Both the position numbers and the translations under genes were made by a program. A DNA stretch of 58,493 nucleotides, the filler included, from Sphacelaria rigidula (taxonomy: Eukaryota): NCBI GenBank assembly GCA_964200075.2. It is 7 parts of 7 records of this genome, joined end to end, with 100 filler letters (N's around TTAATTAATTAA, not from the genome) between each part and the next. Parts side by side here need not be neighbours in the genome. Positions count along the whole stretch, not along the records: positions 41,855 to 50,124 come from CAXNAA020011713.1; 6 more parts are not named here. One strand, 5' to 3'. The stretch's first letter is position 1; each line of letters starts with the position of its first letter. Positions 8,273-58,493 of this stretch are shown piece after piece. Under the pieces are notes generated by a model, which searched no databases, was not told the DNA's origin, and saw only the letters and a program-made list of their open reading frames with translations.

Positions 8273-8372
8273 NNNNNNNNNNNNNNNNNNNNNNNNNNNN
8301 NNNNNNNNNNNNNNNNTTAATTAATTAANNNNNNNNNNNNNNNNNNNNNNNNNNNNNNNNNNNNNNNNNNNN
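8273..8372. other. Artificial contig spacer (N-TTAATTAATTAA-N, six-frame stop linker)
   Basis: 100 nt; identical spacers at 16644-16743, 25015-25114, 33385-33484, 41755-41854 and 50125-50224. Confidence 0.97.
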
Positions 8373-19339: not shown

Positions 19340-19568
19340 CAAGGTTGTGTTCTGTAGGGTGTACCCGGAAGTGGGTGATTTTTAGTTGGCATACTAAACT
19401 ATCGCGACGTGTGTAACGCACATTCAAGTATGGCTTGGCAGGCTATCGAGCCCTGTTCCGAACACTCCGGGAAGGTTCTGAAAGGCATTTTCTGATACAA
19501 AACCTCCTCGAGACTTCTGTGAATACCTGGATTTTGAACAGGTATATACCTTGCAGAACATAACCTTG
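19340..19568. mobile_element. hAT-type MITE inserted in Gypsy pol
   Basis: TIRs caaggttgtgttctgtagggtgtacc / ggtatataccttgcagaacataaccttg; perfect 8-bp TSD gaatcccg; removing it restores DRIPYRANP. Confidence 0.9.
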
Positions 19569-20365: not shown

Positions 20366-20613
20366 GTCTGCTGCCGAGATAGCCCCCCCCGAACCGGCCA
20401 AAAAAGTGCACGGAGGCGATGATGATAAAGGTTGTTAGAGCCGGTTTCATGATGCACGACGCGACTCATTTGGGCGTTATAGCTGATTTTGGACAGCTAC
20501 ACGCCTCTCATGTGGGCGCAGTTGCTGCAAACGAGCCCAACAGTGGAATCGCTGCCGGTTTTTCGGATGATTTCCGGCGCACTTTTCGTGGGGGGGCTAT
20601 CTTGGTATGAGTC
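20366..20613. mobile_element. MITE inserted between RT and RNase H
   Basis: Imperfect TIRs (..ccgagatagcccccccc / gggggggctatcttggta..), flanks caaa/cgaa; removing it restores AAKEEAKSWN. Confidence 0.65.
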
Positions 20614-23600: not shown

Positions 23601-24449
23601 AAAGATATGCCTTCTCGTTTTTTGCCTAAGAAAGGTACAAAAACGGCCAGAAATACGAAAACAGAAGAACACACCATTTTGACCGGTTTCGCGGAGAAAC
23701 CTTATGCAAGGCACAAGTGGTGCTAGGGCTCTAGAGCTCTAGGCGACTGAAGATGATGGATTCTGGCGAGCGCATCTTGGAGTCAAGACACCCACTTTGA
23801 GACACCGTGCTTCCGGGAGTAGAGACCACGAAAGTTGACGGATATCCGTCTGCCAGTGTGTTATCGACCGGCGAACATTTCTGTCTTTTCTTGAGATCAA
23901 GGCACTCACCTTAAGACGTGCTGCGAGGGCTCTACGCGGTCGGAGATGACACAGGTTTCGGCAAGCGAACAATTCTTCGGCCAGCAAATATGTGTGTCTC
24001 TTCAAGAAGTCAACACTCCGAATTCGGGACTCACGTATTCTCAAAGCTCTAGGGGGCGAGAGTGAGGTATTTAGGCCAGCGAATATATTGACGGTCAGCA
24101 AGTATTTTCGCCCACTTTCTAATACCAAGACCCCTACTTCAAGGCACGTGCTTCAAGAGCTCAAGACGGCGCGTGCGGGTGCGGCTGGGTGGCCTTTCGC
24201 TTGTTTGACTCAGGTTTGTGGACCATGTCCCCCCGCCCCTCGCCGCCGACCAAGCGGGACGAACACAAGTTCAAACAAGCACGAGCAACACGAAAGGCAC
24301 GAAACCGCAGCGACGAGCTCGTCCTCACCACGAGCTCTCCTTGCCCAAGCGGCAACTCGCGGCGTTGAGAGATGGAGAAAGGAAGGCGACCTCGGTCAGT
24401 TTTCCGTTGTGAACAAGTAGGCAAGACAATGGCGCACAGCCCCGCCCGC

Positions 24450-24734
24450 CAAGGCCCATTACTATCGACATTGCTTTTGACAGACATGTCAGAAATTTTC
24501 ACAGTCTCCGGGGTCTGCGTTCAGACTTTCCCGAGAAGTAAGCGGAGCGATTTTTCTTCCGAAGCTTCTTTCTCGGAGCAGGCCGAAAAATTCGGACTGC
24601 AACGCAGCACTTCGGAGAGCTGCTCTGCGAGTACACCGTGGGGGTCGCAAGCAGTCGAGAATGATCCGGTACCTTGCTAGTCCCGACAGTTTCGGAGATC
24701 TCCGAAAAAACAGTGTCGATAACAATGGGCCTTG
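24450..24734. mobile_element. MITE with CAAGG termini
   Basis: caaggcccattactatcgacattg / cagtgtcgataacaatgggccttg; no TSD recognisable. Confidence 0.6.
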
Positions 24735-25690
24735 ATCGTGTCTTATGTCGCTGCGGTTCTTCAGATCGATTGACTGTTTTTTGCGCATTAACCGATCCGC
24801 TACGATTTCGGCCATCGTCACAAGACAGGTGTACCGAGGGTAAATATACGACACACACACGCGCAAAGGGATTCTCGATAAATGGAGGAAACGAAAAAGA
24901 AAAAAAGATGTGACAAAATAGAGGAAACTGCGCGAACAGATGCGGATAAAATAGAAAGGAGTCATCCTACGATAGGGGGGGGGTATTTGGTTGCACGATA
25001 AAGGAGGCTCATAANNNNNNNNNNNNNNNNNNNNNNNNNNNNNNNNNNNNNNNNNNNNTTAATTAATTAANNNNNNNNNNNNNNNNNNNNNNNNNNNNNN
25101 NNNNNNNNNNNNNNAGTGACCTCGCATCCCTACAAAGCCGGGACGGAGCACGCCGGGTTTTCGCCGGACCAGGCTCGCGCTCGCGGCGGGATGAGGGGGG
25201 GAGGCGTTTACGTTTGGGCGTGCGTGAGGCAAGTGTTGCTATTCTATAACGCAAGACTTGTACTCCCTTGCATCATGTACAAAACTGCTATTTAGCTACG
25301 AAGTCACCTGCTGAGCCTGTGCGCTCTTGACGTGAGGGAGACGGACGCGGCGGTTACAATTCAAGTGTCTTATACCGGAAGCTGTGCTCACTTCGAACGG
25401 TACTGCCTGGTAGCTACGTTCTCGACCTGCTGTATGATTGTCCACCACGTGACTCATGCAACATTGATCGCAGCACCATCGTTGTAGACAAATTTGTCTT
25501 TCACACGACGCCATGGAGAGATAGTCCAGAACTTCAGTTCACCACGTTCCGACATCTTCATACACGCTATTTTCTCACACAAACTCTGCCATGACTTCAC
25601 CAAACCCTCTCCAACGGAGCTGTGGTTTGAACCCTGTTTCGTTTTGCTACTCTCGTACCTGACCCTAACCCATTCCTATAAGGGGGATAT

Positions 25691-33484: not shown

Positions 33485-36467
33485 GTGGGGAAAGCACTCT
33501 TTTAGGCTTGAACCTCATCTCGGAGTTAAACCTCAATTCGCACAATTTGTTGTTGTATGTCGTTGAAAACAGGGCAGTGTTACCGTCACCGCCACTAATG
33601 TTCTCTGTCACACACATGCCAGCAAGGACGGTGCGCTACGGCAAAAATAACAGATGCTCCAATTTGATCGTGGGGAGTGTTATTCATCGTTGATTTTACC
33701 CGACGTGACAAATTGTAATAGTATAACAGGTAGCAAAGCAAGCCGCACCCCAAGGGAGGGATGTGACAAGCCAGTCCTGTGATCGACTTGTGATATCAAA
33801 GCTGAAGGTTCTCTGCTCAACACAACAATCCAGCTGTTCGGGGCTGTTACACCAGACGCTACGCTCGTGCGTACAATTGAAAGACAAAATGTAAGCGAGG
33901 GTTTATGGTACATGTAATTTACGTGAGTCACGGACTTGAAGACCAGTATCGTTGGAGAGATCAGCAGGTAGGCGGTTTTGGAGACTCTCCTTATATATCC
34001 AAAAGAACGTGGTGAAGACAGCGCTCTCCACCATCGCCTCTGAGTTCGAACGCCGCAAGATCGGCGTCCCGAATTCAGACGTGGAGTACTTGGCCTTGTT
34101 TTTCGATCCTCGAACCAAAATGTTTGGGGAGAACATGTGCGGGGGATCTGGGTGCCGCAAGAAGGCCGAGGAGGCACTGGGCAGATTGAAGGATAAGTTG
34201 GAAGACACGGTCATGGCAGCTGAGCCCGCTGCCCCCAAAACATCCGACACCGACCCTCCACCGGCGAAACGGCGCGCGGTCGCCACCAGCGCCTATGAGA
34301 GGCGTCGGCGTCGACTCGAGGAAGAGGCCGCATCCGCTATCAAGATGGCGAGCGACACCAATCGGCCGTCTTTACAGCATCGTCTAAGCAAGGAGGTGGA
34401 TGAGTACCAGCAGCTACCCGCGGTTGCAAGCAGCAAGGACTTCGACGTCTTGGGCTACTGGAATGATGCTGGAAGCGCCCGGCTCGATCCCCACGGCAAC
34501 GTCATTGTAGCTGCGCAATTTCCCATCTTGTCCATGCTTGCCCGCGTGTACCTTTGCATCGACAGTACCAGCTGTCAGTCGGAGAGGGAGTTTTCGGGTC
34601 TGGCGTTCGTGCACTCAAACCTTCGTCGCCGGACGACACCCGAACGCGTCGAAAAAATGATGTTCCTACGAACCAACCCGGATCTCATTCCGGAGATGAA
34701 GAAACTTGAGGATTCTCTCGAAAGTATCACCCAGAAGCAGAAGGAGGGGAAGGTAAAAGCGGTTGCGGCCCAGGATTCGGGGGCTGGAAAGGAAGTGGTG
34801 ATCGAGCTCGCTGACTAACGACCGCGAAGAGTGTTGTGGGTTGTGATAAGACAAGGACAAGGAGGACGCGGCGGAACAAGAGCCGAGGATGAAAGAGAGT
34901 GATTTCGTGTTTGCGTTACAAACCCCCCCGTCATGCGTAAAAAAAAATGAGTACACTACCATGGTACCACGTAGTATATAACATGAACAGGTGGTTGTTT
35001 TTCGCTGTTTAGTTGTTTTCACCAGGAATGTTTCAAGATATCTCACTACAGTAGTTTTCATATGATGGAGGACATTTTTGTCTTTGTTTCGTACTCGGCA
35101 TTTTTCAGTGTCAAGGCAATTTTTGTTGAGTACTATTCTGAACTTTCGCATGTGGTATCCGTCGTTGGCGCTCAAAAGTCCTGGCGTCGATAGATTTTGG
35201 GAAGAGAAGCAGGTCGTGTGGACAACACAACCCTCAGCTGGTGTTGTCGGGGTGACACGGAGTAAGTACCTTGTTCATCAGGGGGTGTTATTGACCGTCA
35301 CTGGTCCCAAAAATAATTTTTTCAGCTGCAGCCCGACGGTACATGGTCTGTATTTCGTTGGGGTGAGGGTCAGGTTCTGCTTTTCGTTAGAATTCTCGTC
35401 AGAAAAAGGTGAGAATTACAAAAAGAAAAAGCCCACTCTCATTTGTTTACGAGAACGATTGGGATTGCTTCAATCGAGCAAAAATACTCAAGGGGCAAAA
35501 CGTGGAGCTGGGCAGTCTCAGGATCCCCGAAAACCGGTCAGCCCGTAGGTCGTTCAATGACGAACGCAGATGTGATCTCATTTTGGGATGTGGAGGGGAT
35601 GCCTTGGAGATCCCCAAACTTCGGGATGCAAATGTCTACTGGGATAAGCGGTGGAACGCGAAAACACTTCGAATATCCCCGACTACGAAAACACCACGTA
35701 GATATCTCCCTTTTCAGTTGGAAACTACTATGCTGCTATAGACGTCATTCTTGAGGAATGTATTCCATGCGCTTCGTTGTGGTGGATAGCCGTAGTTATG
35801 GGTCTAGCGCTGCTGCTGTTGCGCGTCTGCTACCCCGTCACCCGTCATCCTGTCCTGTAGGGTGGCATTCAAAATTCAAATATGCACTGTTCATTATTCT
35901 CGACTGATTTTTGTTTCCCTCCAGGGATTCGACCTTACGTGTGCGCTATTTAATCCGCCGTACCCCCTATCCAGCAGCTGGAAGTCAAAGCAAAACAACT
36001 ACTTTCGTACTTTTTGGTATTAATCCGCGGATATCCATACATTTTTCGCGGATAACAGTATCGGTTTCACGGATTACTGCGACGGTGCACCGCGGGGAAT
36101 TGACGCGGTTTGTGCGGATTGTTCCACGGAGGGGGGCAATCCGCTCCGTGAAAAAATCCATGCCACGGATATCCGCTCCGAAATAATCCGTGACATTTTC
36201 ATTAGCGGATATCCGCCCCGTGAAAATCCGTGAGTTTTCCCACTGACGGATATCCGCTCCGCTCCGTACCATATGAAAAAAATCCGCACCGCAACGTGAC
36301 ATTTTTGTTGGCGGATATCCGCTCCGCAATAATCCGTGACATTTTCAGTGGCGGATATCCGCACCGTCATAATCCGTGAGTTTCCACACATACGGATATC
36401 CGCTCCGTGAGGTTTTGGAAAAAAAAAAACGCACCGCGGAGCGGATTGTCCTCCGTACACATCCCTG
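33485..36467 (+). mobile_element. hAT DNA transposon, right-hand part (left end off contig)
   Basis: Transposase ORF followed by a palindromic GCGGATATCCGC subterminal array (~36020-36410) and terminus ...ctccgtacacatccctg (CAGGG on the other strand). Confidence 0.7.
33952..34818 (+). CDS. hAT transposase, C-terminal part with dimerisation domain
   Basis: Uninterrupted 288-aa ORF (probable acceptor at 34005): LALFFDPR, EVDEY, DVLGYW, FPILSMLARVYLCIDSTSCQSEREFS, RRRTTPERVEKMMFLRTN, which is the hAT dimerisation signature including the catalytic E of SERxFS. Confidence 0.9.
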   Translation: MERSAGRRFWRLSLYIQKNVVKTALSTIASEFERRKIGVPNSDVEYLALFFDPRTKMFGENMCGGSGCRKKAEEALGRLKDKLEDTVMAAEPAAPKTSDTDPPPAKRRAVATSAYERRRRRLEEEAASAIKMASDTNRPSLQHRLSKEVDEYQQLPAVASSKDFDVLGYWNDAGSARLDPHGNVIVAAQFPILSMLARVYLCIDSTSCQSEREFSGLAFVHSNLRRRTTPERVEKMMFLRTNPDLIPEMKKLEDSLESITQKQKEGKVKAVAAQDSGAGKEVVIELAD

Positions 36468-41754: not shown

Positions 41755-44389
41755 NNNNNNNNNNNNNNNNNNNNNNNNNNNNNNNNNNNNNNNNNNNNTT
41801 AATTAATTAANNNNNNNNNNNNNNNNNNNNNNNNNNNNNNNNNNNNNNNNNNNNGTTCGTGCTTCATAGGGCAAAAAAGCGGCCCATTTTGTGTTTATCC
41901 GGGACAAAGTTGGGCGCCGGTTTTTATGCCGGTTTCGGGCATACAAAGAGAAAGCGGCATAAAATCGATAGTTTTCGTGTACCCTGAAAAAACGGCATAA
42001 AATTGATTTGGCATAAAATAAATGGCATAAAATCGGTTCCACTACTGTACTTCAATTTGCCTCGTCTACTTCGTGAAAGCAATCACACACCGATGCTCGC
42101 TGGATATGTGTGTCTTCTCGTCCTGATCGTAAGGCATGGCCCAACTGAGAGAAATCGAACTTCCCATCACGGTAACATTACATGTGGTAATGAGGTTCCA
42201 TTACTTTTCGTGAGTCTTGACAACCCTCTGTCTGCGACCGATTCTTCCACGGAAGCAGTAGACGCTACGCCCACCACCAACATACCGGGTACACCAACTA
42301 TCGTACTCTCCTAGATTGGTTGACACCTCACGTAATTTGAGTGGTGCCTTACCGACACCTCGCAGAGTTTCATCCTGATTTCCGGAAACTACAGAGGCCA
42401 CCTGAAATTCGACTTGAGCTTCATGATTAGCCTGGGAAGCAAACACTCGGTACCCTTCGTTACGTGTCTTGCAAAAAATAAAACGTGGAGAGAAAGAAGC
42501 AAGCGAGATGGTGTCCTCAGAAGGTTAGGCGGTAATCTAGTGGCATCTCTTCTCTACTTCGGTGCTGCCGATTTATGTTCGCCACCTGCTTTTTTCTGGT
42601 TACTTACTTCCGTGGCTGATTGTCTCTTGGGGTATACGTTCCCTGTGCTCGTATTGGCACGATGAGGTTTACTCATGCCCCCCGTGACCAGTCCATTTTG
42701 CACGTGATGACCCACCCCACTGACCACTACACAATGCACCTTTATGTGGTGGTATATTACAATTATACCTTCGTCTAGCCACTGATCTTCCATCTGTTGT
42801 ACTGCGGCCCTCATGGTAATGCCGGCATGACGGCTTCCTGACCCCCCCTCCCCCCTCCCCTCCCCTTATCTTGTGTCGGTCACTTTGCTCCAGAAAAAAT
42901 CGGAAGCGTGTGAGTGAAGATGTCGACCCTCCTTTCTGCAGACTTGAAGTGGGACAAGTCGTCGACACGCCGGTGTGAATGTGTGCGGCGTTTCGTTCGG
43001 GATGAAAGCATGTCCCTCCACCAACAATGCGTTCGTTGTAACGTGTGTCGAGCTGTTTATTTTCCGGTAGTGTTCACCACTTGGTCGATTAGAACCTTCC
43101 CAGAATTGTATTACTTGATGTGAGTGTAAAAACCGATATCCGGATCTTCGAGCGCGTTTTCGTCAAAATCGGTGCCGGCGCCGTTTTGACATCTGCCAAC
43201 GCCATACTTTGCCTATGAAACGCTTCACACCCACCTCGCCCGAGGGTTCTTGGTATACCTTGGGTTGGGGTTACGGGTAGGGTTGGCGTTATTTGAAAAA
43301 AGATGTTTGCGAGAAATTTGGTTATCGACGAAGTGGTGAACACACCTCAAATTTTCTGTATAAGGCCTTCGCTTCTGTCCATCTGTCCATCTGTCTCTGT
43401 TTCTCTACCCCCTAGTACCCCCATTCCATGAGCTATTATGACTACGGCATGCAAGATCATGGGGACACCCCTTTCTATGAGCTCCCACCCAGTCCCGTGA
43501 TCAAGGCCTCACGTGATTGAAAACTTTACAGTCATGAATGGATATATTCCAACACCCCCCTCTGTTTTTTTGAAAGTACGTTCTTCCGTTTCATCAATCA
43601 CCCACAGTTCGCGAAAGTTTTGAACTCACGAGCCAACCACTTCAGCCACTTGTATGTCTTGACCTGCTTTTGAGTTGGAACAGTGTTCGAGGTGCCTCCC
43701 ATTGTACCTACACTGTTGTGTGTAGCATCTGCATGTCTAGGGTCACGAGTCTCCTCACCACCTGTGCTACTGTCTGCCGCTCCATGGGATATGTGCATGT
43801 TGGCTGTGGCCTGTAAGCCGTCTTCCGCTCTCCCCTAATGGTACAGTTAGAGGTCCTAACACAGTGCGATGGGTTGCCAGCCGGGCATGATCGTATTACA
43901 CTGGTCTAGTGCATGTCTTGATATCAGTATAGAGAGTCGGAATTTTGAGAAATTATATTAAATATACTCTGATTAGACACTTCCTAGTGGTGGGTGGGTA
44001 TAGTAGGAAAGTAGTGAATGAGCCATCCTGGACGGAAGGAGCTGATGAAGTCAAGGTGGAGCTTGTGCGATGAGCTATGCAGTACGATTGCTGCTCGTAT
44101 GTACGGCTTCTTTTTTGTCGAAATCCCACCCTTCGACCGCCTGATTGGCTCATCTGCTCGATTCGGTCATCATCTTTACTCGGACAAAGGACTGCGAAGA
44201 CCCGGATAACCCATCCCGGGCGATCACAGAGTTGTGGGAAACATGACAGCCTTCTCAAGAAAGAAACGACCCCGTACCCTCCCACTCCCTCAGCCTCGAT
44301 TTTCGTTCTCAACACATACCAGGTACGCCCCACCCGGAGGACAATCCTCAATCTCTTTGGGAGACTATGTTACCCCCACACCGACAAAG

Positions 44390-47300
44390 CAACCCAGAGC
44401 TGCGAACGGAAGCGCCGGCAGCCATGGCATGGCGTCGCCCTCAGGCAAGGCCTCGCCAACTGGCAGGGGATCGCCCCTGGCATCGCCTAAGCACGGCGTC
44501 GCTGCGTCCCCCGGTGTCGCCGCGGCGTTGGCTGCTATGGGGGTTCACGTTGGTGTGGCGGTGTGCGAGGCGTCTGGTCTGAAGGCTGCTACGGTTGCTG
44601 CTCTGCAGAAGATGGGTGAGTGAAGTTCACGGGAGCATGTGTGTTGAATATTTCACACCCGAGACATGATGTCAAACTGTCAGGAAGTGTACTACGTACA
44701 GTATCGACTATGGCGTGTAATAGACAACGGGTTCCATACCGTTGGATCCCCGGCTGTACGGAATGAGTTGATGTAACGCAGTGGAGCAATCCAGTAGTAC
44801 ATGTCGTGAGAGCGTGGCAGCCCCAAGCGCTGCGGAAGCCCGTCACCTCGGCGATCCGTCTCCGCCCGTCTCGCCTGTTTTTTCACGCTAAATGAAGCAC
44901 GCAACCGCCCCGACTGCAGGAAGCCTGTCACCTCGGCGATCCGTCTCCGCCCGTCTCGCCTGTTTTTTCACGCTAAATGAAGGACGCAACCGCCCCGACT
45001 GCAAACACCGAAGTGGCCATGATCTTTCCGATGAGAAAAATCGATGTATACTGTCACTCATGGTGAACTGTCGCGTGTTGCCGCGAGCAAGGAAGATTGA
45101 AATTCGCTTCTTCCAAGAAGCACTGGCTCAACATTTTGCCTCATCTGCGGAGAAAACATGAAGACTTCATCGATGAAATGATGATAATACTCAGTACTAC
45201 TGTCTTCGGTTGGGCGGGAACAGCTTAACGCCCGTTGACTCCATGCTGAACAAATGACGTCGTTTGCAGGTGCGAAGGCCACGGTGTACGAGGTGGCGGA
45301 TCCTATGCAGCTGCCTTTCGCGGCCAAGTGCCTGGTAGCCAACGCTCAAGTGTCGGTGGTGGTGGCAATGGGGTTTCTGGTACAGGACTCTCATTGGTGC
45401 TCGAAGGAGGTGAGCTGACGCAACCGGCTTCGTTCGTTCAACGGTACTGCTGCTTCGAGTAGATCATGATTCATATGGTGAAGCAGGGATACCTGCCCCA
45501 AGGGGACCTTTCTGCTGACGTTATTACTATAGGTGTTGTTGTCGTTGGTGGTGGTGTAGCTTCTTGCTGCCGCTGCTGCTTGCTCCTCTTCTCGTTGTTG
45601 GTATGTTGATGAATTGTAGGCTGGTTCACATTTTCGACCCAAAGTTTACTCACCCGCTAATGCCCACGCCTTTTGTTGGAGCTAGACCCTGATAATTTGC
45701 ACACGTATACTGTGGGGCATTTCGGCACTAGTCAAAGTGAGGTCTCTCGTTAATAAAAAATCACCGATTGTCGGGGGGTACCAGGATCCTGCGGAAATCC
45801 GACGAGAATGAACTTTTTTTTTCAATCGTTGAAGGTTCCGAAGTGCCCCTTAGTGTTGAATGTGCATTTTTTCAGAGTCCAACTCCAAGACCTGGCGCGA
45901 GGATTTGGGCAATTGTGTGAGGATGTAGGCTTGAAGTACAGACTCCCAACTACTAGGTTTCAGTATTGAAAACACTCGGTCGAGTACGTTCGACGTCAAG
46001 ATCACCCCAGTCCATCAGTTTCATATCTGTTACTCGATGATATTTCGTACCGTACAGATGTCCCTTGGACTACGCCGGAACGCATTTTTTTAACAGAAGC
46101 ATCACGTACTCGGCTTCTAGGGGCTCACGCGGGGACCCCCGGTACCCGATAAAGAACCAAGAACCGTTGAAGCATATTCAACAATTCATCTTTTCCTTTT
46201 GGAGCACCGGTACCTACCGAACCGCCAAGTGTTGAGGTGATCGAAGCATTACTACGATATACAGAAGAAACATCGTCAGAAGCCTTTCTGGGTCTTTGTT
46301 GCGGATCATCATCGGAAATCTGACGTCATAACCCTAAATCACTGAAATGCCACGGTTTTGGGTATAATTTGATCCCATGTTGACCGTTTTCAAAACTGCT
46401 TTTTCCGGCAGGTCCCCAAGCTGATGACGGTTACTAATTCGAAGTTGAAACAATTTCAAGGCCGTTGATTGATCGAGGTACATTTCGCTTTTTTTTCGCC
46501 CCTAGCGCACTACTATGGTCCTAAACAATAGTCTGGTTATGTCATCCTCTACAGTGATCCATGGCGGTCAGTATGATACCAGGCATGCGACTACTGGGTA
46601 GGTACCCGCGGAAGGCATTTGCTGACTGGATTAGACGAAAGCGTGAACCAGCCTGTAACGTTTTGTATCTGAGAGCAGTGACCTCTTATAAGTACCAGTT
46701 GTCGCTTTATAAGTGGTACAAGACCCGTCGGTTTGAAGCTTGAAGTGTTTCGCCCTCCTGGGCGTTACTCCGGGACGATGGTGGGACCCCCTTTGTGAGA
46801 ACGATGGAGCATGGGCTGTTTGATCGTGTGCAGTCGCCTCCCCGCCCTCCACTTCACGTGTTGACGAGAGACTTCTACTTCCATTAACGGAACATATACA
46901 AACGAGCGTGGATATTGGTCTTTTCCCATGCCTCTGCAGTCATGAGATTGCCGAGCACCCTCTGGAGAAGGAGGGGTAGGTACTCATGAATGTCTCTGCA
47001 ATCATGCGATAGCCGGGCACCCTCTGGGGGAGGGCAGGCGGTACTACTCATCATTCCAGAGAGGGCGAGACAGGTGGAAGCGTTCACACCGTGGACACTT
47101 CATGTGGTCAAGAGTTGCAATAGACACAGTGTACTGCGTAAAGTATGGGCTTATCGCAACTATTGTCGGCACGCTCCCACACCGTGCACGATGTATGGTC
47201 AAAAGTTGCAATACATTCCTAATGTACTGCTTGAAGGATAGGCCTACTGCAACTACTGAGCATATTCTCTCCACGGCGTGGGAGCGTTCGTGCATAAAGG

Positions 47301-49272
47301 TCATCCAGTTACTGCTGTGGATGCGACGATAATCAAAACCCGATTGGGGGACGAGATGCCGCCAGCTGTTGATAATGGAGGCGCATCATGCCCGTCATGA
47401 GCAGAGGAGTGAACCTCCATCAAATACTGTCGTCGACACGCATGAACATGAACAAAGAATCGCGAAACCCATCGCCGGTCCCCGGGGCTGACTCGCAATC
47501 TGCCGGAGCAGCGGCAACGCGCACGCCTCTGTACCGACTCTGCCGGAGGGCGACTGATATCGGTCGCAACATGTGTGGAGTATGACGTGCTGTCGTGCGA
47601 ATGTTCCAAGGCAGCCGCCAACGGACTGTCAATCAAGCTTTAATCATCCGTCAGCATTGGCAGATGGGTCACTGAGCACACATGGCCGAAATCGGCATCG
47701 GCGTTGTGAGCAAGAGAGAAGAGGTTTCGATCGAAGGGTATCTTATAAAGCTCGAAAATGGTACCAGTTAAAACTGGCAATTATCATTATAATGGTAATA
47801 ATTATATGGAAAAAAATGGATAATATATAGTTTTGAACCATTATTTACCGTTACCGGCTTCGTATGCTACATACAGTCCTCGAACATTGGCCCATATTTC
47901 ACGTATCTTGAAGTGTAGTAGTAAAAACGTGCCTCCGGCGGGGCCTCCTCCGCTGAGGGGAACTTTTTGGCTCGCGGCTGCGCCGCTCGATGACCAAACC
48001 GTCATGTACCAGTTAACTGGTTAATGTGTGCGCTACGCGTAACCATTCAACTGGTTGATGGTTAGACAAACTATTTCCGAGCACTGTTGTATTCCCTTTC
48101 GAGGCGATTTTGTTGTTATTCATGTCTCGACTCTACAGCAACTGTTGCCTTGAGCCGGTCAGGAATGTCGTGTTTCGCCTGGGGTTTGCCCCATCTCCGC
48201 GTTGACGTCCTGCACTCGATGAAGGAATCGATTTTACCCCTCGACTCCATCCCTCCCGTTGTACATTTTTTTTCACTCTCCGGTTCCCAGGTTGCGGGAG
48301 CTTTGGTAAAGACTCTGCTGGAGCTGTCCCTGGCGATGCAGGTCCCCATCATTAACGGTCTGGTCTTCTCCCGAGGATCAGCCGGCGACTTGAACGCTTT
48401 GAGCTGCAAGCTAGCCACAAGTGCCATGGATATGGCCGCCATGAGCGAGGGTGGCAAGGAGTCCTACACCGGTCGGTGCCTGTGCCCAGTGTTCCTTCTC
48501 TTGTGTGTCGAGGAACTCCGCCGTTCCTTGTGTGTGTCCGTGTATGTTTCCAGCTTTGAGGTCTTGTTATTTTGTCCTTTGGGTCCGTCCGAGTTGATAG
48601 TCCGGTCCGGTCCGCTTGTTTAAACGAACCATCCGCTGACTTGGTTCTACTTTCCTCCTGGATCAGTATTTGCGCAGAGGGTATTGGACCCGCTGAAGCC
48701 TTGTCAGAGGGAGTTCCAACACGACACACATATTTTCCCTGCTTTTTTTCCGTCGGGAAATCTTCCCTGCCCTTGGTTAACATTCGTGAAATCCTTTTGA
48801 AAGTCACCGTTCAAAGTCGATTTGACTGGTTCGGCGGCCGTTTCCGACAAGTTGACCTGAATCCAGTTCGAGCCTGTTTCAACTTGGAAGCTGCGGTATT
48901 TGGTTGGATTAATCCCCAACTATCCCTCGGGTGTGTGTCGGGTTCGTTACCGAATCGATCCGTTCTCACACACGTGTACATGTATATATATATATGTTGC
49001 ATGTAACCTCGTATATATCTTGATGCGACTGCAGTTTTTTTCTTGTTCTCATCTTGAACCTTCGGTCGATTTCACGTCTCCACGGTGTTGTGTTGCCCCC
49101 CCTTGCCCTCAGTGTCTCGGGTAGCGGTGCCCGCCAGCCCGTTCGGGAAGGTCGCCCGAAGCCTCAACGCGTCGAGAAAGAATTCCGTGTTCCGAGCTCC
49201 TCAGGACGTGCCCGGTGACCTCAGCTCTCTCATGCTCGGCCTCAGGACGTCTCTAGTTGCGCACGGCGTCAA
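44390..49272 (+). CDS. Lumazine-synthase (DMRL synthase)-fold protein with C-terminal extension, probably entering a calcyphosin-like EF-hand region; 3'-partial
   Basis: Phase-consistent exons 44390 (or ATG 44429)-44615, 45270-45409, 48291-48471, 49113-49272 give ...VHVGVAVCEASGLKAATVAALQKMGAKATVYEVADPMQLPFAAKCLVANAQVSVVVAMGFLVQDSHWCSKEVAGALVKTLLELSLAMQVPIINGLVF...KLATSAMDMAAM...LMLGLRTSLVAHGVK, collinear with RibH motifs (EIPFAAK, IITLG, VPVIFG, SAIEMA). Confidence 0.75.
44834..45003 (+). repeat. Tandem duplication of an 85-bp unit (intronic)
   Basis: ggaagcc(c/t)gtcacctcggcgatccgtc...ccccgactgca present twice. Confidence 0.9.
45617..46655. mobile_element. Non-autonomous Tc1/mariner-like element
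   Basis: taggctggttcacattttcgaccc ... aagcgtgaaccagcctg|TA; interior is the reverse-complement relative of 38549-39477. Confidence 0.75.
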
Positions 49273-49605
49273 GTGAGTAATTTTTCCTGTCAGATTCGGT
49301 GGGTCCGTACCCACAAGAAACCTTTTTTTTCTTGTTGAGAAAAATAATGTGATTTCCGCACTTGTTGAAAAACTACGGTCTTGAAAGTGATGAAGAAAAA
49401 GTAGAGATGAAAGTTGATGCGGTCCGTGGGCATGCCATCTTATGTCGTCGGTGGTATTAAAATTGTCGAAAAGGGATGGTGCTCCACGGGAGAGGTGAGT
49501 GGATCCGTTGCCTTGGAACCACGGTTTTTTGTCCCGATGAAGAGGAATAGTTGCGGAAGATGTCGGAAAGGGTAGTTGCGGCGGTTGCCATAGGAGGTGA
49601 AATTA

Positions 49606-49875
49606 CAAGGGTCGGGCGAATCATTGCTGATTCGAATCACAAAATCTACAATTTGTGAGGCCTGATCGTTCCAAGGAGGGAGAAACGTTGACCGCGGGTC
49701 TAAGAAGTTCCGAAGCAATTTTTGCGCTACTACTACTATTCCACTTGAAGGAAGTGCGCGTACCTCGGGTGGGTGCAACGCTGAAAACAAAGCCCAAGGA
49801 TCAATTCGTACCGTACGAATCATTTACACTCGAATCAGGCAATTCTCAGGCAAATCATCATGTGTGCAACCCTTG
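49606..49875 (+). mobile_element. CAAGGGTCGG-family MITE
   Basis: caagggtcgggcgaatc ... tgtgcaacccttg; collinear with 30951-31209; TSD not clear. Confidence 0.7.
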
Positions 49876-50070
49876 GAATATGACGTTGTCGAGAATTGTA
49901 TTGCGTGCATTATCGACTATTGTGTCTATTGCAATAGATGATAGATTCCATACTGCATGTGCAGATTTTGACAAGTGTACTACTCTATCGCCATTATCCA
50001 GGTGTCGCGAGATTCTTTCCCGAGTCGACTATACAGGAATGATATGTGTTTATATCTAGTACAGCCGGTC

Positions 50071-50124
50071 GCCCCGGTGGCTCAGTTGGTAACCTCGTAA
50101 CCTTCTGGTGGATGAGTTGTGGGG
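50071..50124 (+). mobile_element. tRNA-like head (probable SINE), truncated by the contig end
   Basis: gccccggtggctcagttggta contains a Pol III A-box; no normal anticodon arm follows; the B-box would fall in the gap. Confidence 0.4.
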
Positions 50125-50299
50125 NNNNNNNNNNNNNNNNNNNNNNNNNNNNNNNNNNNNNNNNNNNNTTAATTAATTAANNNNNNNNNNNNNNNNNNNN
50201 NNNNNNNNNNNNNNNNNNNNNNNNCACCGTCCTCCCCCTCCCCACCCTCCCCCTCACAACCCACCCTTTTTTTGCTACGGGGGGGGGGGGGGGGTGCGG

Positions 50300-50335
<36 letters not shown>

Positions 50336-50356
50336 GTTGGCGCCGGAGGTACGGTG

Positions 50357-50808
50357 GAGGGAACACTTGGATATTTTCGGTTGTCGATATCCTGGATACC
50401 CCTGAATACCGAGATTTCGGGCAGACGATATCCTGCGTACCCTCAAATACCGAGAATTTCGGGCACTCGATACCCTGGAAACCCTCAAATACCAAGAGCG
50501 GGACAGTCGATACCCTGCGTACCCCCAAATACCGAGAATTTCGGGCATTCGATACCCTGGATATCCCCAAATACCGAGCGGGACAATCGATACCCTGCGT
50601 ACCCTCAAATACCGAGAGTTGCGGGCACTCGATGCCGTGGGCACCCCCAAGTACCGAAAATTTCGGGTAGACAACACCCCGCGTACCCTCAAATACCGAG
50701 AATTGCGGACAGTCGATACCCTGCGTACCCTCAAATGCTGAGAATTTTGGGCAGACAATACCCTGCGTACGCTCAAATACGGAGATAACGAGTCCTTCAC
50801 ATTCCCTG
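50357..50808. repeat. ~37-bp tandem array, probably the interior of a hAT-like MITE
   Basis: About ten units of gggcactcgataccctgcgtaccctcaaataccgagaatttc; bounded by gagggaacac / cacattccctg; a second left-end-like copy starts at ~50858 (cagggagacttgg). Confidence 0.75.
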
Positions 50809-51586
50809 GAAACACGGGGTACCCAGGGATATCTAGTACTGCAAGTAGCAGGGCACCCAGGGAGACTTGGATGTTTTCGGTAGTTGATTCTCCGGGTACC
50901 CTCAACTACCGAGTACCGTCGACAATCGTTACTCTGCGCACCCTATAGTGTTGGATACTCTCAAATACACAAGGTACCCAGGTATACCGAGTACTGCAAG
51001 CAGCCTGTAGAGTTGATGTTGCATGGAATAAGGTTCCCTCGTCTGACGAACCACCTCTGCCACTGCTTGAACGAAGATAGGGTGCGAAAGTGGTTGCGTG
51101 CATTAATACTGTATTTTTGGCTGGTGCCAGGCACAAATGACCGTTTCATCAACTCTACCTCCCCGCTCCCCCTCCCTCATCAGGTAGACTAGTGTAATTT
51201 TGAAAGTCATCATGTGGAGAGACTGGATGGTCCCTGGGCGTCATGCCGCGATTTTCCCACAAATATAAACGTTATGGTCTTATCTTGCCATTGTCCAACC
51301 AGAGGTTGGAGAGAGGTCCGTGAGCATTGCCATACCGCAATCTCTACTCGAAGTAAAACGTAGTTCACAATAAATGTTCATGTACTACTGTGGTGAAGTC
51401 AAGCAAACCAAAAAGACAAAGTACAGTACCTACTCCCTCCCAGGGTCGACATATCCCCGGGTGTACAAGCTCCATGGGGTCCATAGGGCATGCCTTCCCT
51501 ATGCTGTACAAGGACTCACCCTTCGCCCCCTCCCCCCCCCCTACGCGGGTCTCCTTCGTGTGTCTACCCTCTCCGCCTGCGCACAG

Positions 51587-53203
51587 TACACGTCTTCTTC
51601 GAGAGACGAAGACACGGTGAAGCGCGCGAACGGTAAGCTGCTGCACCTGCGGTCAAAATCCAGCGACACAATATGCGACGGCATGCCGTGCGCCCTCTCC
51701 CAACCTACATCAACCGTCGCGCCCAAGGCGACCGTCAGCTCGGACCCACATCCCTCCGCCACATCCGTTTTGCATGGCGGCGGCGTCGGGAGCGGCAGCA
51801 CTACTGCGTTCGGAGGACCGGATGGCGGTGGTGGCGGTGGCGGCGACGGGGGCGGAAACACCTCAACCTCTAGGATGTCAGCGGCGGCGGCATCTGCCGC
51901 CGCGCATGCTGCGTCCACGTTTGGGCGCTTAGGGGCGGCGTCGCCCGCGCCCAGCGCGAGTGTGATGAGCGGGTGGACGGGTAGGGTGAGTGGGATTTCC
52001 CCCTTGCGCAGGCGAGAGGATGGGCAGGGCGGGAGCAGCGGTGATATGGATCACATCATCGATCGCTATCATCGCGTGGTCGACGGGCGGGCGGGTATCG
52101 TTGATGCCGTCGACGACGGAGGGGAGTGCAGAGATGTGGAGCGGGGGGATGTGGAGGCTGGGGTGGTGGGGTCAGATGGCCAAGGCAGTGGCGGCGGCGA
52201 TGGAGAGGGCGGTGGTGAGCGGGAGCGGGGTGGTGACGAGGCTGATGGGAACGGCACTGCTGCAGCCGCGCACGAAGGCGCGTTGGTGCCGGAGACGTAC
52301 GCATCAACGAGGACCGTGATCATGGGCCCCGGTTTTTGTTCGGGGGTAGGATCCGCCGCGGTTAGCCGAGTGTTGGAAGGGCTGCCGCCTCGGGACGGGG
52401 ACACAGGAGCGCGAACAGCGGCGGCAGCAGCGGCAACAGGAACAGCAGCACCAGTAGGACCAGCACGGACACCTGGTTGGGCGTCACCATTCGTTGCGTC
52501 GGCTGCGTCAAGACCTCGATCGCCCGCGTCAGACGTTGGCCGCGATGTTGTTGTCGCTGGTGGTGGTGCGGTGAGCGATAGAGCCGTCGATGTGGAAGCC
52601 GGGACGGCGGGCCGGTTGAATCGCGAAAAAGGTAGAGCGGGACCGGTGGATGGAGATGAAGAGAGGCGACAGGAGTTGTTGGAACGCGTCGGCGATGCGC
52701 CGAGCAGACCGTCGTTTTTGCGTGATGCGGGGAGGGCAGCGGGCGGTGGTTCGATAGTAGCGGGAGAAGAAGTCCGGCGGCATAAGTCGGAGGTCAGTAG
52801 CGAGGGAGCGGATGTTCGAGAGAGGAGCGTCAGTGCAGGCGCGGATGGTGCGGGGGACGGAAATGATCATGGTGATGCTAACTTACAGTCGGGTGTTGTC
52901 GGGCTTGAAACAAGCCGCGTGTCCGGGAGCGGTGCTGCTGGGCCATTTTTGTCTCGTGATTCGGCGGAAGATGTACCGTCAGAAAAAGAGCCTGGCGCGG
53001 CAGCTGCGACGGTGCCAGCCCGACCACCAGAATCATCGGCGATTCCAGGAACGGTTCAAGGATCGGTACCCGAGTCCACAGTTGGGGATGTTCGATTCGG
53101 AGATTTCCCCGGAGGAAGCAGAGATACGGAGCGAGATGTTCGCGATTTGGGCGAAGATGAGACGGGGAGGGCCCAGGGGGTGGACGAAGAAGATGACGCA
53201 TGA
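51587..53203 (+). CDS. Large terminal exon encoding a low-complexity G/A/S/D/E/R-rich region of an unidentified protein
   Basis: Open 609-aa frame 51374-53203, GC-rich and coding-like after a pyrimidine-rich acceptor (gcacag, 51586); ends TGA; no recognisable domain. Confidence 0.7.
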   Translation, partial: YTSSSRDEDTVKRANGKLLHLRSKSSDTICDGMPCALSQPTSTVAPKATVSSDPHPSATSVLHGGGVGSGSTTAFGGPDGGGGGGGDGGGNTSTSRMSAAAASAAAHAASTFGRLGAASPAPSASVMSGWTGRVSGISPLRRREDGQGGSSGDMDHIIDRYHRVVDGRAGIVDAVDDGGECRDVERGDVEAGVVGSDGQGSGGGDGEGGGERERGGDEADGNGTAAAAHEGALVPETYASTRTVIMGPGFCSGVGSAAVSRVLEGLPPRDGDTGARTAAAAAATGTAAPVGPARTPGWASPFVASAASRPRSPASDVGRDVVVAGGGAVSDRAVDVEAGTAGRLNREKGRAGPVDGDEERRQELLERVGDAPSRPSFLRDAGRAAGGGSIVAGEEVRRHKSEVSSEGADVRERSVSAGADGAGDGNDHGDANLQSGVVGLETSRVSGSGAAGPFLSRDSAEDVPSEKEPGAAAATVPARPPESSAIPGTVQGSVPESTVGDVRFGDFPGGSRDTERDVRDLGEDETGRAQGVDEEDDA

Positions 53204-54055
53204 TGACTATGATTATTATCGGGTTTATTATGTCTGCCTAAGATAATTGGATTTGACCACACAATCTGCCGTGGGTTTCGGATGCTGATGGATTATGTCG
53301 TGTTCATGCCCCCCCCCCGCCCCCCATGAAATATATCATGAAGAGTGAAAGTGCACATATATTTACAAAGATAGATTCGAGTCCATGGTTGAGGACGTCG
53401 TCGCCATTGTGGTTGTGTTGACGGCAATGACCAGCACATCCCGTCCGTAGAATGAGTAGGTCATCCGTACCGTGTAGTTTTTAACAACGGATACCGCACA
53501 AGCGGCGAGGGGCCATATATTCGAGGAGCGGAGGGAGTAGATAACCCATCAACATGGAAATTTCCGTGAGTTTCATGTACGATTTCGGGTCTGCCGTATG
53601 CTCAGCAGTCAACAATTTTCGATTTCTGGACAATGACCAGCAGACAACAACGAAATGTAATTCGAAACGTGCGAGGGGGAGATGAGTCGGAGGGGGGGGG
53701 GGGGAGGCGTTATTGGTCCGACTTTGTCAAGTACGACCTGTGGTGTGCGTGCGTTATGGATACTACGGTCCGAGGTTCAAGACTGGGGCATGACGTGGAA
53801 AAAGGAAAAGCATACGGGGACATATTCGTTTTTCCAGCTTTTTTTGTTGTTGTTGCTCGCTCCTCTGTGCAAAAACGACCGCCGGTTGTGCACGTTCGGT
53901 GTGTTTGGTGCCGGCCGGCAGTGTACGTTGAATCAAGCCTGAAGGGCAGTCTTGTCTGTCGATCGCTGCCTCTTTTGTTTTGCTGCTTTTCAGCTCCCGT
54001 GCTTTTTGCGTACTACCGTAGACGAGACGATTGCGCGTGCGCGCTTACTGCATGA

Positions 54056-54314
54056 ACACTTTCTACGATAGCCCTCCCCTCAAAGTGCCTGCTTTGGGGA
54101 GGCAAAATCTTCACGTAAATCGGAATGGAAAAAGCCGAGCACAACGAGCAGCTGGGAATTCCCGCGCTTGGGTTCGTTCTCGCCAATGTCGCCCATGTGA
54201 GGCGCTTCATGCACCCTGATCCCAAACATCGGGCGCTGTAGTATGGCCATTTTTTTCGTGACACTTTTGGGCTGCTTTTTGTTTTTTTTGGGGGGGGGGT
54301 ATCGTAGAGAGTGT
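54056..54314. mobile_element. MITE, same family as 8597-8847
   Basis: acactttctacgatagccc ... gggggtatcgtagagagtgt; flanks gcatga/ccatga. Confidence 0.75.
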
Positions 54315-55494
54315 CCATGATGTTTTTTTTTCCCCGCTGTCTTGAGGTTGTGTGTGTGTGTGTGTGTGTGTGGAAGATAGAGAGAATTCAGGGCCCGCTC
54401 GGAAACGGAGGACAGGAACGTACCGCCGATTTTTCTGGATACTGCGCAGTAAGATGAGCGTGTACTGTACACATTTCTCTTGCACGTGATGGCGAGGAAG
54501 ATGCCCATGGTGGTATGCGGTTCATGTAAGGTTGTGGCTATTGTAGCCTGCCTTATTCTAATTGTGAAGATGGTTTTGACTGCATGTGCGTACGTCTGTG
54601 AGCGTTTTCCCCCGCCATATACCCATTTCAGAGGCACGCGGTCGTACGCTCGTCTTTTTTCTTTTTTAATTGAAACAACAAAAGACGAGGACACGGACGA
54701 ACGGGCGCTTCAAGGCGTCTGTCTCTCCTTGCTTTGTTGCTGTTTTTCTTTTCTTCTTTTCTTCTTTTCTTCTTTTGACGTGAACAAAAAGATACAGAGG
54801 AAAACGGTCAACCAATGTTTGTGTCGAGTGTTTGCAGTTGTGGTTATGTGTGTGTTTGTGTGTGTTTCCCCTTCGTTTGGCGTTCAGGTCATGTTGTTTT
54901 CCTTGGCTTTTGTTTCTTCTTTGCGGTTGACGATCCATGCAGTGATATCAGTACTTACTACTATTACATCTGCTACTACTACTACAGCTACTATTACTAT
55001 ACCTGATGATAGAGAGAAGGAGCTGGCGCTTTTTTTGTGTTACCTTCCGTAAACGAAAAAGCAGCTCGCTTGCTGCTTATCAAAAGCGGGTCGAGACGAT
55101 GTCCTGTTTTCATATTATACTCAGCGGTGGGCACGCGCATTTTTCTCTTTTTTTTTTCCTCATAGTTTGATTAAAAATTAAGTGTTGATTCGCTTAGTCG
55201 ATTTGTCTTGATTTTGACTTGACTTGACTTGAATTAGCATGATTTTGATGATTAATTGATTGGTCGATACGTTGGTATCTAGGTTGGGTGAGCTAAATGG
55301 TCGTGCGGTTTCCCGTGTATCGAACCGAGTTTGGTCCCGTGACCCTACGCTGATGACGGCTTGATTTGAATTGTTCTTTTTGAAGAGACACGCGAGGAGC
55401 CTCCGGATGTACTAGGCGAGCAGGTGGGTATGTGGGGAACCGTTTGACCTCGCCCCCCCCCTGCCCCCCCTGCCCCCCGTGCCCCCCGTGCTCC

Positions 55495-55556
55495 CTCTCG
55501 AAAGGGATGCGTGGTCAATGGTCAAACAAGTAAGAAAAGCAACAAATGAGTACGAC
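55495..55556 (+). repeat. Short dispersed repeat family B
   Basis: cgaaagggatgcgtggtcaatggtcaaac...agcaacaaatgagtac; also at ~32105-32160, 32700-32760 and 33305-33375. Confidence 0.8.
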
Positions 55557-57245
55557 CACCCTCCAACTTGGACAAGAATGGCTATCATGGATGTTTGATA
55601 TCGCCTGGTTTTCCCTTTGGTGTGTTGACACTCATTGCTATCGCATATTTATGCTACCCTGTGCTGCACGAGTGGGTCCTGTCCTACGCTCATTGTATCA
55701 TGGCGTTTTCATGGCTTGATGTATAGTGGCAGCATGGGATATTATTGCGGGGGAGGGGGGGGCTTCCACGTTTTCCCTAGTGGTTCACTCTGTGGTTGGG
55801 CAGGGAAATCGATTGGTTGGTTGGTTGGTTATTCTTTTTCGAAAACGCAAAGAAATAACGCCACGATTAAACATTGGGTCACGTATTTTCCTTATTTTGT
55901 TGTTCGTGTTTGACTCATGCGCACATACGGTGGGTTCGTTGGATTGTCTCTTCTCTTTGTGTTGGAATAATACATGACATGGTGATATGAATGACTTGAA
56001 ATTTTGACCTCTTTTTGTTTGTGTCGTGGTTTGTGTACGTGTGTGCTCGCTCCCTCCGTTGCCTTGGCTGTTGTGTGCTACGCTTTTCTTTTCGTTCCCC
56101 CGTTTTTCTTTCGTTTTTCATTTTTCGTTTTCCTCTTCCGTCTGTTTTTTTGTTGTTGCCTGCATGATATGCATGTCTACATATATATATATATATACAT
56201 ATCCTTCTCTCTCCCCCACAGGTTGTGTTCTGTTCCCTTCCTTCGTACATCTCTTGTGTCTCGTGTGTGTCATGTTTTGTTGTGCTGTGTGTGTACGTGG
56301 TTTGTTTGGGTGTCCCAATATTTCGAGTGCCGTTTTCCTCGTTATGATATTTGCCCTCTTTTCTGTGGATACAAAACAGTGTTGTGACCGCCCCCGCCAC
56401 CATCCGCTGCATGAGTACCCAAGTTTTAAGGGTGCCCGCCGTGCGAACTCCATGCGTACGTTAGTACACGAGAAGAGTTGGCAAAAAAGGAAAGAAGAAG
56501 TCCCCAAATATCTTTTCTTCCTTCATGTGTGATATTAGGTACTTTTTTTCTGCTTGGAGTACAAAGGCAGTTGGTTACTATTGTAGCACCCGCTGATTTT
56601 TTTTGTATATCTTTGTACCACCTAGGATAATAACTGGGAAAGCGAATTGAATGGGAGGGGGCCGTGGGGTGTATGTGGAGTCGTGACGATATCAACCGTG
56701 TGTATATGTGTGGAGTGTGTGTGGGTTCTGTTTCGGAAGAGGCAGATGTACGTTCATTCATGATTGGGTGGGGGAAGATTCGTTTGCGCAATTTTTACGA
56801 CCCCCACCCCCCTCGAACAAAGCCTAAATAGATGTGAGGTGTGTAACCTATATATATATATATATATATACATGTGCGCGAGTTGGCTTCCCCCGAGAGA
56901 ATGGGGGAGGGGGCAGAGAGGGAGGGGTGTTCATCTCATCCCTCTGCATCTTGTGTGGAGTAGGCGGTGTCGTCGAGGAGTGAAATTATCGTGTATCGGA
57001 GGAGGACGAGGTTTTCATGCCATAGGTGCCGAGGGTTTGTGCTAAAAAAAAAGCCTTTGACAAGCCACTTAATCCTTCACTCACTTACCCAGTATTTTAT
57101 ACGAGAGACATGGATGAGGGGTGAAGCGGCATGCAGCTTCTTCCGTTTGGCCACAAGAATATTAGAAGATATGGTTGGCTGATAATATACGGCCGACGTC
57201 ACCCTCGTCCCCATGGAGCGGAGGGACGTCCTGACATGGATGACG

Positions 57246-57281
<36 letters not shown>

Positions 57282-58493
57282 GTATATTGGGTGGCATTTG
57301 CTACGTAATTGAATGCATCGTGATACGGCTGCATCCTCGGGGATAAGTGGTTGGCCGCCCCGGGCCAATGTTGATCAAAATCCACATATTTATGTGGAAA
57401 TCGCCATTTGGGCATGTGCGGAGAGATTTCCTTTTATGACATGTAACCTAGTGAACGGCTGTTACAGGGGTAAGTTCGCAGGAGCCCCGAAACTTCCATA
57501 TCGGTACAGCCGGATCTGGGACCCCAAGGTAACAGGGATCTTCCCAGCGAACTGCTGGCTATCCCTGGGGATCACTCTTGACTTGGACTCTTAGACTTCG
57601 TCATCGGGCTAACTCGCTCGCGCTCGTCGAGCTTTCACGAGTGATCCACTTTGCCTCAACCCCACGACTTACTGTCAATCCTTGACTACATAATCCGAGG
57701 AAAATCATCGGCCACCTTCGACAGTTTCTACCGTCACCGGGAGTCTCACGACTTCCACTATTATATCATATTCATGACTATTCGAATTCTTGAAGGACCG
57801 CTGAAGAACACGTTCGAAGTACACGAACGAAGTACCGAACACCGTGGGGTGAAGCTGACACTATCGAAATCCGGGACAAATAGAACCACCTCGCCCCCTG
57901 AACTCTCGTGCCTTTCGTGGATCCTTCCTGCAAGCATGATATCGGGTAATCCTTAATTTCGGGTCATGGTAAAATAACACGGGATTTTACAAATTCGAGA
58001 TTTTTTTTTATTGAAGATGAACCTTGGGAAGCGTCATACGCATCAAAATATGATTGAAAAAGAAATACGAGTGATCTCTCCGACCGTGATGTGCGGCCTC
58101 GTTCATCCTTGAAGATAAAAAACACCCGCAATTATAATTTCCCGTGCTTTTAGTGGGTTGAAATAAATACGAACGGTTTTTGTACCGGAATGACCGGAGG
58201 ACAACATTGTTCGGCATGAAAACCCCGGATTTCACCAATTCCAGATGGACTTTTTATAGAATGGGTGAGACCACACATCACGGGCGGAGAGTGCATCGGT
58301 ATTTCTTTTTCGAAAATATTTGGAGGCGTATGAAGCTTCCCAAGGTTCATCTTTGAAAAAAAAAACATCCCCAGTCAACAGTGGATCCTAGAAACTGGGG
58401 TTCGTACCAAAAATGAGGTTGAAGTGGCATTTCTCTTTTTAATGTGAGAAGCGAAAAACGCGCGACAGAGCGAAGCAATCTTCCTGCCGACAG

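Follow-up and report, generated by a model that had tools for sequence, protein, structure and literature searches.

A strongly diverged, probably non-catalytic lumazine synthase homologue leads into a probable calcyphosin-type domain in a spliced gene of Sphacelaria rigidula

Introduction

Can the fold of a metabolic enzyme outlive its catalysis as one part of a calcium-responsive protein? This question is raised by a gene of the brown alga Sphacelaria rigidula (NCBI GenBank assembly GCA_964200075.2). The gene was studied in a 58,493-nt stretch of DNA, referred to as the window, in which 7 parts of 7 records are joined with 100 filler letters between parts; positions 41,855-50,124, where its exons lie, come from CAXNAA020011713.1. 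A first-pass annotation of the window had read four exons as a probably dead lumazine synthase (RibH) fold running into a putative EF-hand region of the calcyphosin type. Here it was found that the exons are expressed and spliced, that by profile comparison the N-terminal domain is a strongly diverged homologue of RibH (DMRL synthase), and that the reading frame enters the first helix of a calcyphosin-type domain. A fusion of a RibH-like domain with a calcyphosin module is considered very probable.

Structure of the gene

Splicing was investigated with contigs of four public runs (X1 to X4), which were mapped on positions 43500-50124, the stretch past 50124 being outside the mapping. From each run came a single contig with good coverage (lengths of 880, 887, 910 and 2551 nt; depth 123-337), and it fitted with 0 mismatches and 0 gaps. 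The joints 44615/45270, 45409/48291 and 48471/49113 were found in all four runs, all with GT..AG borders. The nature of the runs as RNA is a guess, being absent from the run records; the contigs lacked the introns, and the runs are therefore taken to hold RNA. The exons, numbered 1 to 4 within the window, and the introns between them are as follows.

44323..44615, + strand: exon 1, at least the second exon of the gene; the fit of the X2, X3 and X4 contigs begins at the AG of 44321-22, and the exon ends at joint 44615/45270
44616..45269, + strand: intron of 654 nt, GT..AG, joint found in 4 of 4 runs
45270..45409, + strand: exon 2, centre of the RibH-like domain, by PF00885 match and hmmsearch alignment
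45410..48290, + strand: intron of 2881 nt, GT..AG, joint found in 4 of 4 runs
48291..48471, + strand: exon 3, C-terminal third of the RibH-like domain (helix, strand 'VPIINGL', final helices), by 14 orthologue fragments
48472..49112, + strand: intron of 641 nt, GT..AG, joint found in 4 of 4 runs
49113..49272, + strand: exon 4, linker and first helix of the calcyphosin-type domain ('DLSSLMLGLRTSL..HG'), by tblastn with the orthologues P0016 and P0010
49273..58493, + strand: start of the next intron, in which no EF-hand exon was found by tblastn; no joint leads from 49272 into 49274-50124

A scripted translation of the four exons joined by coordinates gave consistent phases and 222 open codons from ATG 44429 to 49272. 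The four phase-consistent exons of the first-pass annotation were thus reproduced, with all three introns exact. Its start at 44390 was not; no boundary lies there, and the exon begins at 44323 according to the X2, X3 and X4 contigs. These results confirmed that the four exons are an internal or early part of an expressed, spliced gene.

Exon 1 encodes the part that corresponds to strand 1 and helix 1 of RibH, preceded by the Ser-Pro-rich tail that had been noticed earlier; five SP dipeptides were counted in this exon. Upstream of it, the X2, X3 and X4 contigs carried 92-108 additional 5' letters that had no place in 43500-44322, and therefore at least one further exon lies more than 0.8 kb upstream of 44323. 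From 44323 to ATG 44429 the coding frame contains no stop codon. An out-of-frame ATG at 44367, 62 nt ahead of 44429, opens an overlapping frame of 72 codons (44367-44582, + strand). Given the open frame and this out-of-frame ATG, the true start codon may be upstream: the 44367 frame could be an upstream open reading frame, or, more likely, the real start is in an unseen 5' exon.

Within the intron 44616..45269, a unit of 85 nt was found duplicated in tandem at 44830-45003 (96% match).

Orthologues and conservation

A search with exon 3 among 1.84 billion cluster representatives returned 15 proteins at E<=0.001. One was the same locus unspliced, 13 were short genomic frames covering the exon only, and one was longer (P0010). 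The 14 orthologues shared 53-82% identity with the window sequence over exon 3 and had 12 invariant columns; the domain is therefore not decaying, and is under purifying selection.

P0010 is a partial unnamed protein of 255 residues from Hapterophycus canaliculatus, in which a linker like that of exon 4 is followed by EF-hands. A follow-up search found P0016, a partial unnamed protein of 244 residues from Ectocarpus sp. 13, which begins within the equivalent of exon 2, has the exon 2/3 junction at exactly the same point as the window gene, and ends in EF-hands. A word-indexed protein search returned nothing for exon 2 and, for exon 3 among longer proteins, only P0001, the unspliced frame of the same locus. 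Scans of metagenome contigs for a spliced relative gave 73 pattern matches with the exon-3 alignment and 405 with the linker alignment, among which there was no relative.

Homology of the N-terminal domain to RibH

When the four exon translations were scanned singly against Pfam, exon 2 matched PF00885 (DMRL_synthase) at E 0.0012 with 19.2 bits, covering 36-73 of the 139 profile positions. PF00885 was also matched by three of the six orthologue proteins scanned, namely P0016 (profile 60-117, 15.3 bits), P0008 (77-137, 17.0 bits) and P0005 (80-134, 13.2 bits). The matches were collinear across exon 2 and the orthologues, and no further enzyme family appeared at E<=10.

A RibH alignment of 54 sequences was assembled from E. 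coli ribE, three other enterobacteria and 50 Pseudomonadota genomes; the pairwise identity was 19-99%, with a median of 39%. In hmmsearch with the hidden Markov model (HMM) of these sequences, the spliced protein scored 27.9 bits, a value on a custom model that is not comparable with the Pfam cut-off of 26.7, and profile 34-119 was aligned with residues 51-133. The best of 5000 shuffles of the spliced protein scored 8.9 bits.

A family profile of the window protein and 15 orthologue pieces was compared with the RibH alignment by hhalign. The local alignment gave Prob 96.1, E 2.9e-9 and a score of 57.1 over 111 columns; the global alignment gave Prob 96.2 and E 1.5e-9 over 132 columns, covering RibH 13-159 of 159. 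Reversed templates gave Prob 0.1-0.3, and the best of 20 column-shuffled templates gave Prob 2.1 with a score of 18.8. The exon-3 family alone matched RibH 97-155 with Prob 73.8 (E 2.9e-5). In addition, the three Atlas clusters nearest to residues 1-90 of P0016 by language-model features, which serve as a lead only, were all DMRL_synthase (0.87, 0.87 and 0.86). The collinearity with RibH that had been drawn by eye was thus found well above the decoys.

A different fold was considered. The N-terminal domain could be some other small alpha/beta fold, of the flavodoxin-like kind, that resembles RibH by convergence or by chance, and such an origin would agree with Pfam scores that all stay under the cut-off and with the lack of a sequence match in the PDB. 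It would leave unexplained that four independent fragments matched PF00885 collinearly with no other enzyme family at E<=10, that 27.9 bits stood against at most 8.9 in 5000 shuffles and Prob 96 in hhalign compared with 2.1 or less over 22 decoy runs, and that the three listed Atlas clusters were all DMRL synthase. This origin is regarded as very improbable, and the comparisons taken together identify the domain as a strongly diverged RibH homologue.

Changes at the active site

Among the 54 RibH sequences, 31 columns were conserved at 85% or more. The window protein keeps 8 of these, replaces 19 and lacks 4, and the 8 kept columns are hydrophobic and Gly/Pro positions. Residues are numbered below as in E. 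coli RibE, counted from the translated locus.

In exon 2, P55-G56-A57-x-E59 of RibE is replaced by A-D-P-M-Q. Further replacements in the window protein are R84 to Q, G85 to D, T87 to H, H89 to C and T118 to F. The segment HWCSKEV of exon 2 stands at the place of RibH T.H...V, with Cys at the position of the catalytic His; the spacing between the flanking anchor Gly and Val is the same as in RibH, so that this call does not depend on gaps. Q124, A125, R128 and A129 of RibE fall inside a 7-residue deletion of exon 3, at the QA..RA loop of RibH, and hhalign placed a deletion of 5 residues after strand 1, at the R-F-N loop.

The altered residues listed by the first-pass annotation included F22, H88, R127 and K135 of B. 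subtilis RibH, which we take to have substrate-binding or catalytic roles. The alignments bore out the deletion of the RFN loop, DPMQ, the change of His to Cys and the deletion of the Arg-bearing loop. The NKG lysine did not fare as well: hhalign gave Leu at this position, while an alternative by eye retains Lys or Arg, and the residue is uncertain. Because the alignment of the N-terminal strand and the last helices rests on one sequence, the fates of single residues there are uncertain, that of the NKG lysine above all.

Since neither PGAxE nor the catalytic His nor the Arg-bearing loop has been kept, the RibH-like domain is probably inactive as an enzyme. It might instead be a lumazine synthase with an unusual active site, or catalyse a new reaction. 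A His is present two residues ahead of the usual position, a conserved Cys occupies the His site, and the domain is under selection, all of which would fit; the loss of 23 of the 31 highly conserved RibH columns, among them G85 and the P, G and E of PGAxE, all four invariant, and the Arg-bearing loop, makes continued catalysis extremely unlikely.

The calcyphosin-type EF-hand module

Three EF-hand stretches each were found by Pfam in P0010 and P0016, with EF-hand_7 at 6.6e-19 and EF-hand_1 at 2.4e-18 in P0010. By reading, the EF-hand loops of both proteins carry acidic or polar residues at positions 1, 3, 5 and 12. The relatives of P0010 in the PDB were RIB57 (E 3.7e-34), RIB22 (E 1.1e-25), 'calcyphosin-like protein' (11yj, E 3.1e-24) and human calcyphosin (3e3r, E 1.4e-21). 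RIB22 and RIB57 are inner proteins of the ciliary doublet microtubules of Tetrahymena.

Exon 4 matched P0016 and P0010 in tblastn with 58% identity over 36 residues and 45% over 74 residues, respectively. In the alignment of the linker and helix, the window sequence was 50% identical to both orthologues. The alignment of RIB22 to P0010 starts at the 'DL.SL' helix, which is encoded by exon 4 of the window. These comparisons support the reading of the end of exon 4 as the first helix of a calcyphosin-type domain. The N-terminal helix and the EF-hands that align to calcyphosin and RIB22 are all present in P0010 and P0016, and the window gene shows the first helix only. The earlier proposal that the frame runs into a calcyphosin-type EF-hand entry was borne out by the two orthologues, in which the frame carries on into three EF-hands.

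At its 3' end exon 4 has a GTGAGT donor, in phase 2. The X1 contig, 2551 nt in length, extends 1808 nt past the exon with no place in 49274-50124, and the X2, X3 and X4 contigs extend 3-39 nt past the donor. An EF-hand exon is absent from the window, as had been stated before: tblastn of P0010 and P0016 at E<=10 gave credible matches to exons 2-4 only. The next intron is therefore longer than 9.2 kb, or the assembly is broken there.

Weak tblastn matches of the EF-hand part at 52877-52948 and 54084-54161 (E 4-9) were rejected as chance because they are without acidic loop residues and lie inside low-complexity frames.

The orthologues bear on whether the fusion exists in this species at all. 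The 1808 nt past exon 4 might encode sequence other than EF-hands, or the X1 contig might be chimeric, the calcyphosin domain then being confined to the orthologues in Ectocarpales; the 9.2 kb downstream without an EF-hand exon, and the fact that one of the four contigs (X1) reaches far past exon 4, would fit. The strong donor of exon 4, in phase 2, lies within the conserved first calcyphosin helix, which would be senseless alone, the X2, X3 and X4 contigs also pass this donor, and the linker and helix are as close to one orthologue as to the other. A lack of fusion in S. rigidula is therefore held to be highly unlikely, and we infer that the 3' exons of the window gene encode the same EF-hand domain as the orthologues.

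Comparison with known proteins

The window domain is collinear with RibH/RibE (PF00885) throughout (132 columns), and the core strands and helices and the 8 conserved structural positions are retained. It differs from RibH by an identity of about 21%, by two substrate-binding loops that are shorter by 5 and 7 residues, by ADPMQ for PGAxE and Cys for His, by the EF-hand fusion and by a score under the Pfam cut-off.

On the side of the calcyphosin family (3e3r, 11yj and Tetrahymena RIB22, RIB57 and RIB35 of 8g2z), the alignment of P0010 spans about 155 residues, which take in the N-terminal helix and three EF-hands, with E values from 1e-21 to 4e-34. Judged by lengths and alignments, these calcyphosin-family proteins consist of EF-hand modules only, and none has a RibH-like N-terminal domain.

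A partial parallel is MpCAFA of Marchantia polymorpha. This ciliary protein has calcyphosine-like and FAP115-like regions and is required for normal swimming speed. It too is a lineage-specific fusion, in which a second module accompanies one of the calcyphosin type; in contrast to the window gene, its partner is an EF-hand region like FAP115 and not derived from an enzyme, and the calcyphosin part is N-terminal there and C-terminal here.

No description of a RibH-like domain joined to a calcyphosin module was found in the full-text literature, subscription journals and domain-architecture databases being outside the search. The main text of a brown-algal genome preprint does not mention lumazine, EF-hand or calcyphosin. 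The supplement of PMC5795050 lists three Ectocarpus EF-hand proteins in a flagellar table against the posterior-flagellum proteome of C. bullosa; one of them may be the orthologue. The architecture is considered new, built of two known folds.

Proposed role of the protein

The protein would consist of three parts. The first is the Ser-Pro-rich N-terminal tail, which could be a target of phosphorylation. The second, of about 135 residues, would be a pseudoenzyme domain descended from RibH and retained for a structural, docking or self-association role. The third, after a linker of about 45 residues, would be a calcyphosin-type EF-hand domain that binds Ca2+ and is encoded past the window. As a whole, the protein may belong to the axoneme of zoid flagella, as a component that responds to Ca2+. 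The flagellar placement is suggested because, among solved structures, calcyphosins and microtubule inner proteins of cilia are nearest to the EF-hand module; by analogy with these and with the Marchantia fusion MpCAFA, a flagellar protein is possible, with the odds somewhat against it. RibH proteins assemble on the basis of pentamers, as a pentamer, decamer or 60-mer, and the first-pass annotation had supposed an oligomeric scaffold for a Ca2+ sensor; that the domain forms a pentameric scaffold is unlikely.

Loss of catalysis need not mean loss of the ligand. Some lumazine synthases bind riboflavin tightly, and flavin-like fluorescence occurs in brown-algal flagella. The domain might still bind a lumazine, flavin or pterin-like ligand and act as a Ca2+-regulated carrier of a chromophore or cofactor, for example in the posterior flagellum of brown-algal zoids, which is autofluorescent. 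At the place of the former active site, the window and Ectocarpus sp. 13 have the same segment, HWCSKEV, which suggests a conserved pocket, and the EF-hand module is of the ciliary type. This segment is represented by two sequences, however, and the positions that contact the pyrimidine and ribityl groups (PGAxE, the loop after strand 1, T87/H89) are replaced or deleted, so that a ligand carrier is improbable. Distinctly improbable is a more elaborate arrangement, in which the RibH-derived pseudoenzyme would form a pentameric ring or hold a chromophore of the lumazine or flavin type, showing five calcyphosin Ca2+ sensors in the zoid flagellum, as a Ca2+-switched structural element or a light-related element of phototaxis.

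The reading preferred as a whole is that of a tail, a RibH-derived pseudoenzyme and an EF-hand domain, to which a probability of about 0.75 is given. Several points weigh against it. Exons 1, 3 and 4 had no PF00885 match in the single-exon Pfam scan, nor had P0006, P0004 and P0012, three of the six orthologue fragments scanned, and all PF00885 matches obtained (19.2, 17.0, 15.3 and 13.2 bits) were under the curated cut-off of 26.7 bits, single exons or fragments having been scanned. The RibH profile was limited to one phylum, Pseudomonadota, and in the family alignment exon 1 was represented by a single sequence and part of exon 2 by two. A phmmer search with exons 2 and 3 against the PDB sequences found no lumazine synthase. 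The runs X1 to X4 are RNA by guess only, for which the intron-free contigs speak. The EF-hand exons of the Sphacelaria gene itself were not seen, and an intron of more than 9.2 kb is implied.

The matches that phmmer did return for exons 2 and 3 in the PDB (a light-harvesting protein, a designed repeat protein and a peridinin-chlorophyll protein) were at chance level and were set aside.

The interpretation of the first-pass annotation was upheld in part: as to the diverged RibH homologue, the loss of most conserved positions, the first helix of the calcyphosin-type domain and the placement of the EF-hand exons outside the window.

Other features of the window

Runs of N were found at 1390-1399 and then in pairs at 8273, 16644, 25015, 33385, 41755 and 50125. 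Each pair consists of runs of 44 N with 12 bases between them, recurring every 8370 nt or so. They look like regular masks rather than assembly gaps, and the sequence is probably continuous across them. The remaining features are given below.

11164-12294, + strand: large frame resembling an exon, with the helicase motifs AAA_11 (8e-07) and AAA_12 (1e-07), by these matches probably part of a UPF1/DNA2-type helicase gene
19692-20438, 21284-21802 and 22032-22457, + strand: remains of a retrotransposon in separate frames, with RVT_1 (1.6e-17) and Integrase_H2C2 (9.3e-09); the third frame is without a Pfam match
33940-34818, + strand: frame with a hAT-family C-terminal dimerisation region (6.6e-13), a putative hAT transposase remnant or domesticated copy
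50063-50124: short element with a summed depth of 15,000-25,000 in the four runs, partly masked
50125-50224: masked stretch
50279-50334: poly-G run of 56 nt, in the presumed long intron after exon 4
50383-50785: about 10 copies of a 42-nt tandem unit, in the same presumed intron
51374-53203, + strand: low-complexity open frame of 609 codons in which Gly, Ala, Asp and Ser are abundant, without a Pfam match

The loose ends of the element at 50063-50124 resemble the T-arm of a transfer RNA (tRNA; GGTTCGAATC), and ARAGORN found no tRNA in 41855-58493; the element may be a tRNA-derived short interspersed nuclear element or a tRNA gene cut by the mask. For the frame at 51374-53203, the guanine-cytosine content at third positions was higher in the other frames; it may be a gene, a frame derived from a repeat, or part of the intron.

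Significance

Lumazine synthase is a textbook example of a self-assembling enzyme and a favoured scaffold in protein engineering. To our knowledge, no natural, non-catalytic descendant of lumazine synthase fused to a signalling domain has been reported. The public models of P0010 and P0016 are partial, and their precomputed Pfam domains are EF-hand families only; current annotation therefore overlooks the N-terminal domain. Were this domain still able to oligomerise, the gene would be a natural example in which a metabolic protein that builds cages or rings has been recruited to bring several copies of a Ca2+ sensor together. The calcyphosin proteins that are being found inside cilia would, in addition, gain a lineage-specific member.

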